Origin: an archaeon GW2011_AR15
GTDB taxonomy: Archaea; Nanobdellota; Nanobdellia; Woesearchaeales; GW2011-AR15
Assembly (NCBI GenBank): GCA_000830295.1
Contig: CP010425.1
Location: 35,927 to 99,926 of the forward strand
Length of the DNA: 64,000 nucleotides
Reading direction: 5' to 3'
The position numbers were made by a program, and so were the translations under genes. Positions 39,096-40,858 of this stretch are shown here, one piece after another (positions within the stretch are counted from its first letter, which is position 1; each line of letters begins with the position of its first letter). The notes under the pieces were generated by a model. That model was not told the origin of the DNA. It was given only the letters and a program-made list of their open reading frames with translations, and did no database searches.

Positions 39096-39103
39096 TTCTG
39101 TTA

Positions 39104-39134
39104 TCAAGCACACAATTAAAAAAAATGGGCCTGA
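39104..39134. repeat. 31-bp direct repeat copy 1 (duplicate of the tRNA-Ile 3' end plus downstream 22 bp)
   Basis: tcaagcacacaattaaaaaaaatgggcctga differs at a single position from copy 2. Confidence 0.7.
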
Positions 39135-39189
39135 CTTGATTCCCACCAATCCTTTTCAGCATTGATGGGGAAAGTGTGTTTCCCTTCGG
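39135..39189 (-). repeat. conserved tRNA-trailer element, copy A (downstream of tRNA-Ile)
   Basis: In tRNA orientation it contains TTTCCCCATCAATGCTGAAAAGGATTGGTGGGAATCA, about 85 percent identical to the element downstream of tRNA-Ser. Confidence 0.55.
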
Positions 39190-39220
39190 TCAAGCACACA
39201 ATTAAAAAAAGTGGGCCTGA
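39190..39220. repeat. 31-bp direct repeat copy 2 (overlaps the genuine 3' end of tRNA-Ile)
   Basis: tcaagcacacaattaaaaaaagtgggcctga. It is 55 bp from copy 1. Confidence 0.7.
39204..39210 (-). terminator. oligo-T tract directly after tRNA-Ile
   Basis: T7 on the transcribed strand begins 2 nt after the discriminator base. Confidence 0.5.
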
Positions 39221-39315
39221 GCGGATTTGAACCGCCGACCAATGGCTTTCTTAGATAACATGTACCAATGGCGGTCATATAAGACCATCGCTCCACCAGG
39301 CTAAGCTACAGGCCC
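39212..39315 (-). tRNA. tRNA-Ile with anticodon UAU, containing a 30-nt canonical BHB intron (plus-strand 39248-39277) after position 37
   Basis: Folded by hand. Acceptor GGGCCTG/CAGGCCC; D-stem GCTT/GAGC; anticodon stem ATGGT/GCCAT; loop CTTATA|intron|A; T-arm GGCGG-TTCAAAT-CCGCT. Loop nt 32-35 (CTTA) pair perfectly with intron TAAG, giving 3-nt bulges at both splice sites. Confidence 0.65.
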
Positions 39316-39365
39316 GTAAAAAGACCCTGGTGTGATGCCATGGAAACTTAATCGATTTTTATAGT

Positions 39366-39668
39366 TTACTCATTCCCGACGACTTCATTGTGCTGGGTTT
39401 CGAGTTTCTTCACGAAGAAGTTGAGGCAGTCTAGCCCGCAGAAAGTTGCTTTTTTCCTGAAATCCTCAGGGCCGAAAAATAATGCGTATCTGGGCTCGCC
39501 TTCATGGACTGTGCCGCAGGTGGCGCATATGTTGGAAGGGAATTTTTTCTCAAACCCCTCCAGCCTGGCCTTCAGCAGCCTGGCTATGTTGCCCTCATAC
39601 AGGTCCTTCTCTATTGCTTTTAAGTCCTTATAATTCATAGAACTAATCATGTTTGAGAGCCGGTTCAT
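39366..39668 (-). CDS. hypothetical small Cys-containing protein
   Basis: 100 aa with CATCG...CGLDC pairs, a possible zinc-binding fold. Lies between the two tRNA genes. Confidence 0.35.
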   Translation of the reverse strand: MNRLSNMISSMNYKDLKAIEKDLYEGNIARLLKARLEGFEKKFPSNICATCGTVHEGEPRYALFFGPEDFRKKATFCGLDCLNFFVKKLETQHNEVVGNE

Positions 39669-39798
39669 ATGTAAATCCTATATAGGAGTGCTGTTTATAT
39701 TCTTTTTCCTTTTCCAATTATGAAAATTCACTGAAATCTCTTTTTGTAGTGAATTTTCAACTTGAAAATCAGCTAAAGTGATTTTCAATTAAGAAAAC

Positions 39799-39806
39799 TA
39801 TAAAAA
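39799..39806 (+). promoter_or_regulatory. TATA box (TATAAAAA) with upstream purine-rich BRE-like GAAAAC for tRNA-Ser
   Basis: Ends 26 nt upstream of the first tRNA nucleotide (39832). Confidence 0.45.
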
Positions 39807-39831
39807 ACAACATGAATTACTTGGATAATAT

Positions 39832-39958
39832 GCCGCGGTCGCATAGCCCGGCCATTGCGATGGATTGCTAGGAGCTTTTGTTCCTCAGAAACCTACACTG
39901 GCCCACAAATATCCATTGTCCTTTTTGGGACACGTGAGTTCAAATCTCACCCGCGGCG
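39832..39958 (+). tRNA. class II tRNA-Ser(GCU) with about 40-nt intron (39871-39910) in the anticodon loop
   Basis: Acceptor GCCGCGG/CCGCGGC; anticodon stem ATGGA/TCCAT; loop TTGCTA|intron|A; long variable arm GTCC-TTTTTG-GGAC; T-arm GTGAG-TTCAAAT-CTCAC. The BHB is relaxed (3 of 4 central pairs). Confidence 0.55.
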
Positions 39959-39960
39959 TC

Positions 39961-39967
39961 TTTTTTT
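39961..39967 (+). terminator. oligo-T tract directly after tRNA-Ser
   Basis: T7 begins 3 nt after the discriminator base. Confidence 0.5.
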
Positions 39968-39969
39968 CA

Positions 39970-40046
39970 AGTGTGGCTAAGTGAAACGCATGCCGCACCT
40001 GTTTTCCATCAATGCTTTTTCTAAAAGGATTGGTAAGAATCACACT
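39970..40046 (+). repeat. conserved tRNA-trailer element, copy B (downstream of tRNA-Ser), flanked by CGCGGCGyCTTTTTTCA direct repeats
   Basis: Contains TTTTCCATCAATGCT...AAAAGGATTGGTAAGAATCA. The direct repeat at 39952-39969 recurs at 40047-40063. Confidence 0.55.
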
Positions 40047-40099
40047 TCGCGGCGCTTTTTTCATCAGTTTTATAAACCAGCACTGATTTTCTATATGCC

Positions 40100-40858
40100 A
40101 TGAAAAGCAAAATATTCCTTCTCTTCATAGGCACATTGTTCTTAATAGCTGCATGCACAAAAACACAGAATATTACCTCATTTGAGGAATGCGCAGCAGC
40201 AGGCTATCCTGTAATGGAAAGCTATCCGAGGCAGTGCAGGGCAAACGGAGAATTATTTGTTGAAGAAATGGTTGAACTTGCATGGACAGGATTTATTCAA
40301 TGCCCTGATGAAAAGCCTGAAGTATGTACAGCAGATTATAGACCAGTATGCGCGCTAAAAGACAACGGTCTCAGATGTATCAAAGCACCATGCCAGAGCT
40401 TTGATGCTGTAACAATGGGCAATGACTGTACAGCCTGCGGAGATGCAGAGGTATTTGGGTATTATCCTGGTGAGTGTGAATACAGAAGGTTTGTAATATG
40501 TGAAGAAACAGAAAAAGGATTTAATATAACAAAAATGGCAGAAGAATATGGGTGGGATTGTGTGGACATCTGCCCCGGCAACTATGATGAGTATTATACG
40601 CAGATAGGGTCAACGGCATGCATAATCCATTACGGAGAGGAAGAGATAAGTGAGTGGGAAACCTGCGATAGGTCTTCTGATTCTTGCAACTGCGTCAAGG
40701 CATATGAGACAACAGATGGTCACAAGAGTGCAGAAGAAGTGCAGGTTGAAAACGCAAAATTCAGGTGCGTGCCTGAGGAGTATGCTGAAAGGCTGCTGTT
40801 CAGGGGCGGGCAGGAAAGATTAGATGAGAACGGCGAATCCTCCACTATAATTGCCTAA
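40100..40858 (+). CDS. secreted Cys-rich lipoprotein with Kazal-like protease-inhibitor-type domain
   Basis: Signal peptide plus lipobox LIAAC. CTADYRPVCALKDNGLRCIKAPC matches the Kazal Y-x-PVC...C spacing. There are more than 20 Cys. Confidence 0.5.
   Translation: MKSKIFLLFIGTLFLIAACTKTQNITSFEECAAAGYPVMESYPRQCRANGELFVEEMVELAWTGFIQCPDEKPEVCTADYRPVCALKDNGLRCIKAPCQSFDAVTMGNDCTACGDAEVFGYYPGECEYRRFVICEETEKGFNITKMAEEYGWDCVDICPGNYDEYYTQIGSTACIIHYGEEEISEWETCDRSSDSCNCVKAYETTDGHKSAEEVQVENAKFRCVPEEYAERLLFRGGQERLDENGESSTIIA

Follow-up and report, generated by a model that had tools for sequence, protein, structure and literature searches.

Two tRNA genes, tRNA-Ile(UAU) and tRNA-Ser(GCU), lie close together and in opposite orientations in the 64,000-nucleotide stretch of DNA analysed here (the window), and each is followed by the same succession of features: a T-run, a variable hairpin (hairpin 1), a conserved hairpin (hairpin 2), and a copy of the gene's own 3' end with its T-run (Table 1). 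These are exactly the two tRNAs that ARAGORN detects in the 64 kb in its intron mode; its default bacterial mode finds no tRNA in the window, because both genes have introns. The tRNA-Ile gene carries a 31-nt intron and the anticodon loop CUUAUA, read as UAU in the Rfam match, and the tRNA-Ser gene has an intron, a long variable arm, the acceptor GCCGCGG/CCGCGGC and a discriminator G. Both tRNAs are complete without the distal fragment, from which a T7 terminator separates them, and interpretation as a split or permuted tRNA, or as a non-canonical intron, was therefore rejected. No population polymorphism was seen at either locus among eight assemblies of the species, which are identical there. 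A neighbouring 338-aa ORF is an orphan without homologues and is useless as a syntenic anchor.

Table 1. Features of the two tRNA genes and of the segments that follow them (window coordinates)
Feature	Position	Strand	Basis
tRNA-Ile(UAU) gene	39212-39315	-	Rfam RF00005, 54.3 bits; ARAGORN intron mode 39211-39315
Ile proximal duplication copy	39190-39220	-	repeat search; local alignment 30/31
Ile hairpin 1, type I, GTGTGCTTGACCGAAGGGAAACACAC	39174-39199	-	sequence, comparison with L072 and L060, fold
Ile hairpin 2, conserved, CCATCAATG-CTGAAAAG-GATTGGTGG	39143-39168	-	CM and fold
Ile T-loop-like linker GAATCAAG	39135-39142	-	sequence, fold
Ile distal duplication copy	39104-39134	-	repeat search, local alignment
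tRNA-Ser(GCU) gene	39832-39958	+	sequence; ARAGORN intron mode 39831-39960
Ser proximal duplication copy	39941-39969	+	repeat search, alignment
Ser hairpin 1, type II, AAGTGTGGC TAAGTGAAACGCAT GCCGCAC	39969-39998	+	sequence, locus comparison
Ser hairpin 2, conserved, CCATCAATG-CTTTTTCTAAAAG-GATTGGT	40006-40034	+	exact pattern match
Ser linker AAGAATCACACTT	40035-40047	+	sequence
Ser distal copy of tRNA 3' end with terminator, CGCGGCG C TTTTTT CA	40048-40063	+	repeat search, alignment

An earlier, sequence-only reading had described a 31-bp sequence at the end of tRNA-Ile that recurs 55 bp further on with 30 of 31 identities, which is exact. The proximal copy starts with the last 9 nt of the tRNA and comprises the tRNA 3' end TCAGGCCCA, a C, the T7 terminator, AATT and GTGTGCTTGA, the last being the first 10 nt of hairpin 1; the distal copy consists of the displaced tRNA-Ile 3' end, T8 and AATTGTGTGCTTGA. 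The duplication thus takes in the element's own first 10 nt, which a simple one-step insertion does not explain, and later gene conversion or partial re-duplication is assumed. Behind tRNA-Ser, a 17-bp repeat recurring after 77 bp had been proposed; the repeat stands, but not as a clean 17-mer, its core copies CGCGGCGTCTTTTTTTCA (39952-39969) and CGCGGCGCTTTTTTCA (40048-40063) being 16-18 nt long, distinguished by two 1-nt indels and 78 nt apart. If mismatches are allowed, this repeat reaches back to the T-loop over 24 nt (AATCTCAC-CCGCGGCG versus AATCACACTTCGCGGCG), the proximal copy running from the T-loop AATC through the 3' strands of the T-stem and of the acceptor to the G and TC-T7-CA.

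The core that was said to be common to both intervening segments, in the same orientation relative to each tRNA, was recovered as CCATCAATGCT (11/11), AAAAGGATTGGT (12/12) and GAATCA (6/6). Within the window, the 20-mer AAAAGGATTGGTRRGAATCA occurs at these two sites only (two found against 0.03 expected, with up to 3 mismatches), and the gapped core pattern gave no match in 100 shuffles; the two-copy pattern of tRNA end and core far exceeds what chance would produce, and other genomes show it as well. The absence of an integrase between the repeats also holds, only 55 and 78 nt lying there, with no ORF. The covariance model (CM) R1 matches hairpin 2 in both segments, at 39140-39174 (42.8 bits) for tRNA-Ile, where the loop is GAAA and the upper stem 2 bp, and at 40000-40039 (55.6 bits) for tRNA-Ser. 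The Ile copy has a fold z of -3.2 on the tRNA-sense strand versus -0.6 on the opposite strand. The Ser linker contains a T-loop-like GAATC, as well as a CACACTT whose complement, AAGTGTG, lies at the element's left end (27/5000 shuffles), and TCAAG in the Ile linker is complementary to CTTGA of hairpin 1.

Copies beyond the two window sites

At least eight further tRNAs, from Woesearchaeota MAGs and metagenomes, are followed by the same arrangement, whose tail is always a copy of the local tRNA. Hairpin 2 was found in MAG JAVZBY01 after tRNA-Arg(UCU), a tRNA called Phe(GAA) by ARAGORN and an orthologue of the window's tRNA-Ser, 78.6% identical to it (loci L001, L002 and L006), and elsewhere after tRNA-Arg(CCU) (L048), tRNA-Leu(UAG) (L072) and tRNA-Ser(GGA) (L080); at these six loci it is trailed by the T-loop-to-terminator segment of the adjacent tRNA itself. 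In most copies of this 3' type, identity with the local tRNA begins at A58-C61, and a self-copy was present in none of the 11 bacterial and phage control tRNAs of the fetched loci. Element subfamilies are independent of tRNA identity: the type I hairpin 1 occurs at the window's tRNA-Ile, at the tRNA-Leu of L072 and at L060, and type II at the window's tRNA-Ser, at the tRNA-Arg of L048 and at L070, the GGCTAAG..GTGAAAC motif of the Ser hairpin 1 being common to L070 and to reversed copies in L048 and L218. The archaeal loci hold 28 sense-strand CM matches, in a locus set that is biased because most loci came from exact-hairpin searches; the woesearchaeal tRNAs sampled free of this bias number eight. 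Most bacterial matches in the genome and metagenome scans were dismissed as chance matches inside genes.

In the window's own genome, three of the four tRNAs seen carry a 3' element. tRNA-Thr(GGU) (L218) has one whose terminal hairpin is of another kind and whose self-copy measures 16 nt; it is missing from the relatives at L207 and L208. L080 carries two elements in tandem, the outer tRNA-end copy being the more decayed, and this arrangement reflects serial insertion.

Copies are also found outside tRNA 3' ends. At the groES-groEL junction of the window's own genome (L098, 18884-18980), a copy lies between 48-nt repeats, 41/48 identical, that begin at the last groES codon and end at groEL codon 6; the spacer measures 135 nt here versus 12, 17 and 74 nt in relatives whose GroEL is 87-82% identical, and these relatives have the empty site. 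Reversed copies lie in the 5' parts of a tRNA-Arg (L048) and a tRNA-Ala (L208), where nt 1-13/14 are duplicated from +1, and the tRNA-Ala insert is missing both in the relative L207 and in the window's own species (L218). Empty sites are thus documented at three places: the groES-groEL junction, the 5' end of tRNA-Ala and the 3' end of tRNA-Thr. Element copies occur, in addition, in nested arrays away from tRNAs. What had looked like structured RNA upstream of the hairpin in CAYQKJ01-type loci turned out to be further reversed element copies (loop GAGCGTAACCA), and an apparent 5' module of L048 is likewise a reversed copy with a variant terminal hairpin (again loop GAGCGTAACCA), in nested or tandem insertion.

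With respect to the initial proposal of an element that inserts after tRNA 3' ends with target duplication, insertion and duplication are borne out, whereas the restriction to tRNA 3' ends and the placement after the tRNA are not: the duplicated block starts inside the tRNA, at about nt 58 in the T-loop, and extends through the terminator, and the reversed 5' copies and the groES-groEL copy lie elsewhere. Occurrence throughout the genome, unrelated to tRNAs, had been named as an observation that would speak against the proposal; it is encountered in part, one of the four copies seen in this genome lying away from tRNAs.

Ends, hairpins and duplications

The element is approximately 55-150 nt long and non-coding, with no ORF. 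From a T/A-rich left end it proceeds through the variable hairpin 1 to the conserved terminal hairpin 2, which in type A reads CCATCAATG-C[2-11-bp stem-loop]G-GATTGG and is often continued by a T-loop-like GTRRGAATC; in other subfamilies a different hairpin occupies this position, and hairpin 1 is also replaced by unrelated hairpins. Type A hairpin 2 is kept to the base across distant archaeal MAGs. Its upper stem varies from 2 to 11 bp and is always paired; a compensatory change from C-G to U-A occurs once, and the share of paired cells is 86%, versus 32-56% when the partner is slid. This pattern of pairing indicates that hairpin 2 is a real structure, a case that does not rest on covariation statistics, which are weak, the stem having been fixed by the search pattern.

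Every well-resolved copy lies between long duplications, whose lengths are 13, 14, 17, 20-25, 24, 31, about 36 and 48 bp. At tRNA genes an orientation rule is followed: the hairpin-2 end always joins within DNA that codes for a loop, at about nt 57/58 in the T-loop or at nt 13/14 in the D-loop, and the T-rich end joins at an edge of the transcription unit, which is +1 or the far side of the terminator T-run. Through the duplicated block, a complete tRNA gene is therefore rebuilt beside the element, and the displaced tRNA-end fragment remains on the element's other side. The right end varies among copies (GGAT, GGATTG, GGATTGGTGA or GGATTGGTGGGAATCAAG). Terminal inverted repeats common to the family were not found, the longest terminal complement being 3-5 nt in six of seven copies, not above shuffles, and only the window's Ser copy having a 7-nt complement, the one given above. 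At the left end, the T/A-rich tract reaches 45-50 nt in L001, L002 and L006, and T6-T7 is present even in copies at tRNA 5' ends; a T-rich tract is found in most copies, with no clear one in L070 and the groEL copy, and is conserved among two or three copies of one MAG. The junction at the T-rich end is usually T-rich|A-rich, as in TTTTTT|ATATAA, TTTTAT|AAAAAA, CATTC|TATAAC and CTGC|AATTTAT.

Searches for a partner and comparison with known systems

Neither integrase, transposase, Cas1, HUH nor RT domains were found among the Pfam-matched genes of the window and 20 kb of its flanks (84 kb in all), where approximately one third of genes have no Pfam match, and no Cas1 Pfam match occurred in the roughly 100 kb of the genome that were read. 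No enzyme was found beside the multi-copy arrays, where, as in the window, only housekeeping genes are found. Three scans of 2.9 million viral contigs, aimed at a viral or plasmid parent, returned chance or coding matches only, the motif being absent; one phage gene family happens to contain CCATCAATGCTTGAGCATAAGGATTGG. Rfam 15 yielded no match on the element at the gathering score or at E<=1 (tRNA and 5S rRNA in L020 only). No conserved box C/D or H/ACA boxes occur on either strand of the two window copies, CUGA being present only in the type-I loop, and readings of the hairpins as RNase P-like, box C/D, H/ACA, K-turn or BHB-intron structures were discarded for want of defining motifs and of an Rfam match. 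A TnpB/omega-RNA-like guide, with a conserved scaffold and the tRNA end as the 3' 'guide', was also dropped: the elements do not reach the length it requires, neither TnpB nor IscB is encoded nearby, and target duplication of the ordinary kind is seen in the non-tRNA and the reversed copies.

Among known systems, casposons are archaeal, integrate beside or overlapping the tRNA 3' end with the T-psi-C-loop-coding DNA as part of the target, and proceed by directional, staggered attacks that produce a long duplication; their copies can pile up beside the tRNA (PMC5137440; PMC4779613). The element resembles casposons and mini-casposons in these respects, staggered attack being the proposed route here, and anchoring in the T-loop would, by analogy, have a precedent there. 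Casposons, however, carry terminal inverted repeats, cas1 and polB, and make a fixed 14-15-bp duplication overlapping the tRNA by approximately 5 bp, whereas the element has no inverted repeats, duplicates 13-48 bp from the T-loop, also occupies non-tRNA and 5' sites, and has no cas1 in sight. Long, variable duplications are a feature of the IS1634/IS1549 and IS1202 groups of ISfinder, those of IS1634 type measuring tens of bp. MITEs, like the element, are short and non-coding, exist in multiple copies, are moved in trans and lie between direct target duplications, and empty sites are present here too; yet terminal inverted repeats and precise ends are part of their definition, neither is a family feature of the element, and no fixed short duplication is seen. 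Tiny hairpin repeats without inverted terminal repeats are also known as IS200/IS605-derived PATEs and as Rickettsia palindromic elements. IS200/IS605-type transposition inserts 3' of a fixed short motif, a tetra- or pentanucleotide, and makes no target duplication, in contrast to the long duplications at all well-resolved copies described here. Rickettsia palindromic elements insert into genes, RNA genes included, without destroying them, which they achieve by in-frame insertion, in contrast to the target duplication used by the element. No described class of mobile DNA fits the element.

Routes of integration and implications

The best explanation overall, to which we assign a probability of roughly 0.6, is that both segments are small, non-coding, non-autonomous mobile elements of Woesearchaeota and a few other archaeal MAGs. 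That they arose by mobile insertion with target duplication is very probable; a DNA-level, staggered-integration route in particular is the favoured one but tentative, and somewhat less likely than its negation. The joining chemistry, as we infer it, would involve an enzyme acting in trans that integrates the element at the DNA level, attacking the two strands at offset positions, with the palindromic DNA that codes for the T-arm as anchor and gap fill-in yielding the target duplication; such a route would follow the logic of casposase/Cas1 and of long-duplication transposases. Against this explanation stand the variable 13-48 bp duplications, unlike those of characterised DDE transposases or of casposase (fixed at 15 bp), the lack of a candidate enzyme in the searches above, the absence of family-wide inverted repeats and the imprecise ends.

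These same properties, namely variable duplications, imprecise ends and no inverted terminal repeats, are those of eukaryotic SINEs and other non-LTR retroposons, which also share with the element a conserved terminal stem-loop, a variable T- or A-rich tract at the opposite end (here in most copies), nick sites of the T-rich|A-rich kind, association with tRNA transcription units and dependence on a partner enzyme. A SINE-like retroposition would insert an RNA copy by target-primed or template-switching reverse transcription, one nick priming the cDNA and a second, at variable distance, producing the variable duplications, with source copies behind tRNAs being transcribed by read-through of the T-run and freed by tRNA 3' processing; duplicated blocks are indeed bounded by the ends of primary transcripts, either +1 or the terminator. 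Reverse transcriptases of diversity-generating retroelements are known in Woesearchaeota (PMC5006420). The route is weakened by the failure to find an RT or endonuclease in 84 kb of this genome, by an A-rich tail that is not simple poly-A and would lie on the strand antisense to the best-folding one, by the groEL and L070 copies, which have no clear tail, and by the near-identical 'tail' at three loci of one MAG, which therefore behaves as part of the element. No non-LTR-type retroposon or SINE is known from prokaryotes. Retroposition of this kind is thus unlikely, and a little more so is its full form, in which these would be the first prokaryotic SINE-like retroposons, hairpin RNAs reverse-transcribed at a nick in the T- or D-loop-coding part of a highly transcribed gene that a 13-48-bp duplication then rebuilds.

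A retained function, in which the element serves tRNA genes as an RNA or DNA signal and owes its persistence to selection and not to mobility, its hairpins and tRNA-like 3' tail making up a small RNA transcribed with the tRNA or on its own (a processing signal, a back-up terminator, a decoy, or an external-guide-like RNA that pairs with the 5' acceptor strand of the tRNA), would account for the frequency of 3' elements in this genome, for copies that are fixed and identical in the eight assemblies, for the base-level conservation of hairpin 2 and for the better folding of the tRNA-sense strand. In both window copies, moreover, the decayed T-stem tail is complementary to the element's left end (AAGTGTG/CACACTT; CTTGA/TCAAG), a pairing that leaves the acceptor-strand copy as a single-stranded 3' tail. 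Orthologous tRNAs of relatives do without the element, however; copies occur in both orientations, at the start of a protein gene and, remote from tRNAs, in nested arrays; other subfamilies have unrelated hairpins in place of hairpin 1 and even of hairpin 2; and a T7 terminator stands between tRNA and element, which has no Rfam match. A 3'-trailer RNA motif, as had been suggested from the sequence, is consequently not supported as the primary explanation, and a selected function in place of mobility is improbable, while a secondary RNA role may exist. More improbable still is an enzyme-free, MMBIR-like template switching during replication, where a nascent strand stalled at one end of a tRNA gene under heavy transcription would jump through T-run microhomology to another copy and return via the T-loop AATC behind the stall, copying the tRNA end again. 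Microhomology at both junctions of the 3' type (the T-run on the left; GTRRGAATC versus the T-loop GTTCRAATC on the right), duplication boundaries at transcription-unit edges and the failure to find an enzyme are in its favour. Little or no microhomology is found at the 5'-type and groEL junctions, though, random switching would not be expected to obey the orientation rule or to draw repeatedly on one donor family, and the base-perfect hairpin 2 across phyla, which it leaves unexplained, implies a sequence-specific partner.

The least credible of the routes considered takes the segments for att scars or miniature integrative elements: a tyrosine integrase would have recombined a small circle at the tRNA T-loop, and the direct repeats would be att identity blocks, as for proviruses and plasmids in archaeal tRNA genes. 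Integrase att repeats begin in the T-loop and end shortly beyond the tRNA 3' end, the tRNA being intact at one of the two repeats and represented by a 3' fragment at the other (PMC9897764), and the 3'-type repeat has this extent, corresponding to the classical 'T-loop sublocation' (Williams 2002, cited in PMC9897764). The GGATT-GGTGAG-AATCC junction is palindromic like a core site, and the tandem of L080 resembles accumulation beside a tRNA. Such repeats, however, flank kb-sized, integrase-bearing elements and arise by conservative recombination with an element-carried tRNA segment, in which the tRNA body would become joined to the 3' block brought by the element; one subtype could therefore not sit at Ile, Leu, Ser and Arg genes with perfect local blocks. 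Here the insert is 55-150 nt long with no integrase or element body between the repeats, and instead of one identity block the same subtypes are found at different, unrelated targets, each with a different and locally matching repeat. No integrase was seen in any examined locus, the motif is absent from the 2.9 million viral contigs, and the 48-bp groEL duplication and those of tRNA nt 1-14 are unexplained. The att-scar reading is already contradicted by the non-tRNA and 5' insertions.

If the segments are indeed small mobile elements, tRNA gene ends would be used as safe sites: that they are tolerated landing sites is the favoured view, because the duplication rebuilds a complete tRNA gene, and they are possibly also transcriptionally favourable. 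DPANN archaea have genomes of approximately 1 Mb that are thought to be poor in mobile elements; most tRNA genes seen here nevertheless carry insertions of 55-150 nt, the gene being rebuilt by duplication of its end. Since no described transposition chemistry fits, either the integration mechanism itself or the use to which a known enzyme is put would so far have gone unrecognised, and the responsible class could be a Cas1-like enzyme, a reverse transcriptase, or a host repair or tRNA-processing activity. Such insertions also affect annotation, through tRNA-end fragments, longer tRNA leaders and trailers, assembly breaks at nested arrays and false ORF calls, among them one of 36 aa between groES and groEL. 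Finally, their presence or absence between close relatives could provide markers for strain and population studies of uncultivated Woesearchaeota.

Two tRNA genes and the element behind them

With introns allowed, ARAGORN places the sole two tRNA genes of the 64-kb window within 39100-40065; its bacterial mode called no tRNA in the window, since both genes have introns. These introns are long (31 nt in the Ile gene, about 40 nt in the Ser gene), standard bacterial-mode finders miss both genes, one of which is tRNA-Ile(UAU), and the intron mode of ARAGORN wrongly assigns the Ile gene as Ser(UGA).

Coordinates of tRNA genes, repeats, element copies and neighbouring features (L-numbers denote fetched loci)
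Feature	Locus	Positions	Strand or orientation	Remarks
tRNA-Ile(UAU)	window	39212-39315	minus	Rfam, 54.3 bits, 31-nt intron, anticodon loop CUUAUA
tRNA-Ile, ARAGORN intron mode	window	39211-39315	minus	
tRNA with anticodon GCU, ARAGORN intron mode	window	39831-39960	plus	
tRNA-Ser(GCU)	window	39832-39958	plus	sequence reading: acceptor GCCGCGG/CCGCGGC, discriminator G
Ile direct repeat	window	39104-39134; 39190-39220		
Ser left end/tail	window	39969-39975; 40041-40047		AAGTGTG/CACACTT
Ile left end/tail	window	39191-39195; 39135-39139		CTTGA/TCAAG
Gene just downstream of Ser element	window	40100-40858		
RHS / YD-shell / TcdB-like toxin cluster	window; L100, L101	55416-64000		
groES-groEL copy	L098	18884-18980	antisense to operon	
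groES-groEL element region	L098	18859-19005		record JAGVXU010000003.1
Dense nested/tandem arrays, CAYQKJ01-type organism	L064; L065; L076	1-330; 14050-14411; 6700-7030		
Dense nested/tandem arrays, CAYQKJ01-type organism	L008, L009, L016, L039			
Copy at 5S rRNA gene	L020	34-193	reversed	
Copies upstream of secreted-protein gene	L007; L070	830-1200; 2900-3100		
tRNA-Ala to tRNA-Thr spacer	L208; L218	6245-6430; 5595-5717		

The direct repeat that the sequence-only reading had described downstream of tRNA-Ile was recovered exactly (31 nt, 30/31 identical, 55 nt between the copies). That downstream of tRNA-Ser is also real (CGCGGCGTCTTTTTTTCA versus CGCGGCGCTTTTTTCA), but its spacing is 78 nt instead of the proposed 77, and two single-base indels separate its copies; with mismatches allowed, it reaches back to the T-loop (24 nt). 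The shared core proposed at the same time holds as well, with CCATCAATGCT, AAAAGGATTGGT and GAATCA identical in both copies and in the same orientation relative to the tRNA. A core 20-mer, at up to 3 mismatches, was found twice in the window versus 0.03 times expected, both matches being the two copies.

Read in the tRNA sense, both copies are built in the same order. The tRNA 3' end is followed by a T7 terminator and, after 3-4 nt, by hairpin 1; a short linker of pyrimidines leads to hairpin 2, beyond which come a T-loop-like GAATC, a few more nt, and a copy of the acceptor 3' strand, discriminator and T-run. Hairpin 1 is GTGTGCTTGACCGAAGGGAAACACAC in the Ile copy and GTGTGGC-TAAGTGAAACGCAT-GCCGCAC in the Ser copy. 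Hairpin 2 has a lower stem, (CC)ATCAAT/ATTGGT(GG), with a conserved U.G pair, surmounted by a G.G mismatch and an upper stem of C-G and U-A pairs whose length varies. Compared with shuffled sequences, the fold of the Ile copy is significant on the tRNA-sense strand (z -3.2, 0/200) and not on the opposite strand (z -0.6), while that of the Ser copy is weaker (z -1.3 versus -0.4). Rfam gave no match to the element, either at gathering score or at E<=1. With a covariance model built on hairpin 2, 28 sense-strand copies were recovered in archaeal loci, and none in the window beyond the two. The upper stem is paired in every case (2-11 bp), with one compensatory C-G to U-A change, and hairpin 2 cells are paired in 86% versus 32-56% after sliding the partner. 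Since the stem was fixed by the pattern searched for, covariation yields only weak statistics.

At the Ile copy the duplicated block extends into the element and covers its first 10 nt, for which we assume, as most likely, later gene conversion between the repeat copies or partial re-duplication. The decayed T-stem part of the tail is complementary to the left end of the element in both the Ser copy (27/5000 shuffles) and the Ile copy (369/5000), and the acceptor-strand copy remains as a single-stranded 3' tail; this complementarity was not seen among copies from other genomes.

The window belongs to JAGVXU010000003.1 (352 kb) of GCA_018303605.1, a Candidatus Woesearchaeota MAG, and both of its elements are unchanged in eight assemblies of the same species. 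Neighbouring genes are of the housekeeping type (pyrimidine synthesis, SDR, DEAD-box helicase, ribosomal proteins, chaperones), together with an RHS/YD toxin cluster. Of the surrounding genes that match Pfam, none has an integrase, transposase, Cas1, HUH or reverse-transcriptase domain; about a third of all genes there have no Pfam match. The toxin cluster of this small DPANN genome is large, and its repeated small ORFs are candidate immunity genes or alternative C-terminal cassettes. The gene just downstream of the Ser element, which has no Pfam match, appears by eye to encode a Cys-rich secreted protein resembling that of L007/L070.

Copies in other genomes and empty sites

An exact-pattern scan of 185,579 species genomes detected the hairpin in four archaeal MAGs only, other matches being chance occurrences inside bacterial genes. 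Three tRNAs of the Woesearchaeota MAG JAVZBY01 (L001, L002, L006) have the hairpin about 150 nt downstream, followed each time by the local tRNA's own AAATC, T-stem, acceptor, discriminator and T-run. L006 is the orthologue of the window tRNA-Ser (78.6% identity, syntenic gene 4 kb away) and carries a different element subtype. A metagenome scan added tRNA-Arg(CCU) (L048), tRNA-Leu(UAG) (L072) and tRNA-Ser(GGA) (L080), as well as copies without a tRNA link (L060, L070, L007). The subtype of the window Ile copy is common to the L072-Leu and L060 copies, and that of the Ser copy to L048-Arg and L070; subtype is thus independent of tRNA identity, and the element therefore moves between sites. Partial self-copies were present in 5/8 Woesearchaeal tRNAs sampled without hairpin-search selection, among them three of the four seen so far in the window's genome, and in 0/11 bacterial and phage control tRNAs of the fetched loci. 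The hairpin-2 pattern repeatedly gave false positives in a phage structural-gene family that carries CCATCAATGCTTGAGCATAAGGATTGG in frame (freshwater phage contigs L027, L034, L036, L045, L058, L109, L115 and others).

The groES-groEL junction of the same genome, about 8 kb outside the window on the side of position 1, contains another copy. Direct repeats of 48 nt (41/48 identical) border it, each extending from the final codon of groES to codon 6 of groEL; the downstream one makes the groEL start intact again, and the upstream one creates a spurious 36-aa ORF (MAAKQINPFNKS...), called as a gene in some annotations. The spacer measures 135 nt here versus 12, 17 and 74 nt in relatives (GroEL 87%, 83% and 82% identical), in which the duplicated segment is single-copy. 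Comparison with these relatives also revealed empty and occupied sites at the tRNA-Ala 5' part and the tRNA-Thr 3' end. The tRNA-Ala of L208 contains, in its 5' part, a copy in reverse orientation with 13 nt duplicated (GGGCCAATGGCGT, nt 1-13), absent from L207 and from the window's own species (L218). In L218, tRNA-Thr(GGU) has a 3' element with a 16-nt self-copy (AATCCCTTCAGAGGCT), absent from L207 and L208, whose different terminal hairpin (GTTGATAAGGG-TAGACTA-CCCTTATGTGGG) is found in L080 too. Besides its 3' element, the L048 tRNA-Arg has a reversed copy in its 5' part; here 14 nt (nt 1-14) are duplicated and the hairpin is of a third type (GTATCAAT-CGAGCGTAACCA-ATTGATAC).

The tRNA-Ala to tRNA-Thr spacer of L208/L218 contains further degenerate insertions. 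One is a variant-B-like piece in reverse orientation that bears a 9-11-nt GGTCCATTT repeat; another, 59 nt long, duplicates 14 nt of tRNA-Thr (nt 1-14) and lacks a recognisable hairpin 2; a type-II hairpin 1 is also present, reversed. These suggest that additional, unrecognised subfamilies exist. In CAYQKJ01-type loci, the 'structured RNA' arrays consist of element subtypes inserted in both orientations, nested or in tandem, and contigs often break at them. Some end in a tRNA-3'-end-like tail with no tRNA nearby, and the 'Methanosarcinales' label of this MAG may be an error. In the Altiarchaeota MAG JAFGDV01 (L020), a reversed hairpin-2 copy with an 11-bp upper stem directly adjoins the 3' end of a 5S rRNA gene, its left side being off the contig; stable-RNA genes besides tRNAs may therefore be targets.

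Rules of insertion

Duplications are long and variable (13, 14, 17, 20-25, 24, 31, about 36 and 48 bp), as are those produced by some bacterial insertion sequences (ISfinder). In 12/12 copies that are linked to a tRNA and have a recognisable terminal hairpin, the end with hairpin 2 adjoins a position that codes for a loop (about 57/58 in the T-loop, or 13/14 in the D-loop) and the T-rich end a transcription-unit edge, either past the terminator T-run or at +1. All three 5' duplications begin at +1, within 1 nt, the third (L208 tRNA-Thr) lacking a recognisable terminal hairpin. In agreement with this, the left repeat (GTCCAGTG...) of the orthologous non-tRNA copies L007 and L070, upstream of a secreted Kazal/BP74_N-domain gene, begins about 24 nt past a TATA-like box, at a probable transcription start.

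Terminal inverted repeats were not found as a family-wide feature, and the element ends are imprecise: the right end is GGAT, GGATTG, GGATTGGTGA or GGATTGGTGGGAATCAAG depending on the copy, the left end is a tract rich in T/A and between 1 and about 50 nt long, and the target junction at the T-rich end is usually T-rich|A-rich. Many copies have GTRRGAATC (or GTTCCTAAATC in JAVZBY01) as their right end, which is similar to the T-loop GTTCRAATC but belongs to the element, since it is identical at tRNAs with different T-stems. L080 holds two elements, and its outer tRNA-end copy is more decayed than the inner, which indicates that new copies enter beside the gene, displacing older ones outward.

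Nature and spread of the element

These data show a family of non-coding, non-autonomous mobile insertions whose target duplication rebuilds the interrupted gene. Insertion with target duplication at tRNA 3' ends, as first proposed, is thus borne out at many tRNAs, but groES-groEL and tRNA 5' sites are also used; the element either prefers the ends of tRNA genes or is best tolerated there. The two other options of the sequence-only reading did not survive. Taking the repeats for att scars of an integrase fails, since locally matching blocks at so many different tRNAs cannot arise by conservative recombination, the groEL and tRNA 5' insertions are left unexplained, and no integrase was found among the Pfam-matched genes surrounding the window elements. 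A purely functional trailer RNA is contradicted by empty orthologous sites, two orientations and non-tRNA copies; the element may have a secondary role beyond mobility.

As for the chemistry, the leading candidate is DNA-level staggered integration by an enzyme acting in trans, which would be anchored on the palindromic T-arm-coding DNA (probability about 0.4). Just such a staggered, T-arm-anchored integration, with a 15-bp duplication at tRNA-Pro, is described for the A. boonei casposase (PMC5137440). SINE-like retroposition would account for the variable duplications, ragged ends, lack of inverted repeats, terminal stem-loop, T/A-rich tract and T|A junctions, which together have the look of a retroposon, and diversity-generating retroelement RTs occur in Woesearchaeota (PMC5006420); however, no RT was found among the genes around the window and the strand evidence is in conflict, making this route unlikely. 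Enzyme-free template switching at sites of transcription-replication conflict is more improbable still.

No description of this family was found in the full-text literature searched on archaeal/DPANN repeats, tRNA-linked duplications and non-autonomous elements. The nearest reports concern tRNA fragments left behind by kb-sized integrated elements (PMC9897764, PMC3293823), casposons (PMC5137440, PMC4779613), and Pyrobaculum C/D box sRNA genes with MITE-like or retrotransposon-like spread (PMC6009581). As a small, non-autonomous mobile element that duplicates its target, it is of an already known kind. Its properties, taken in combination, match no family described so far, and with a minority probability it is something categorically new, a prokaryotic retroposon.
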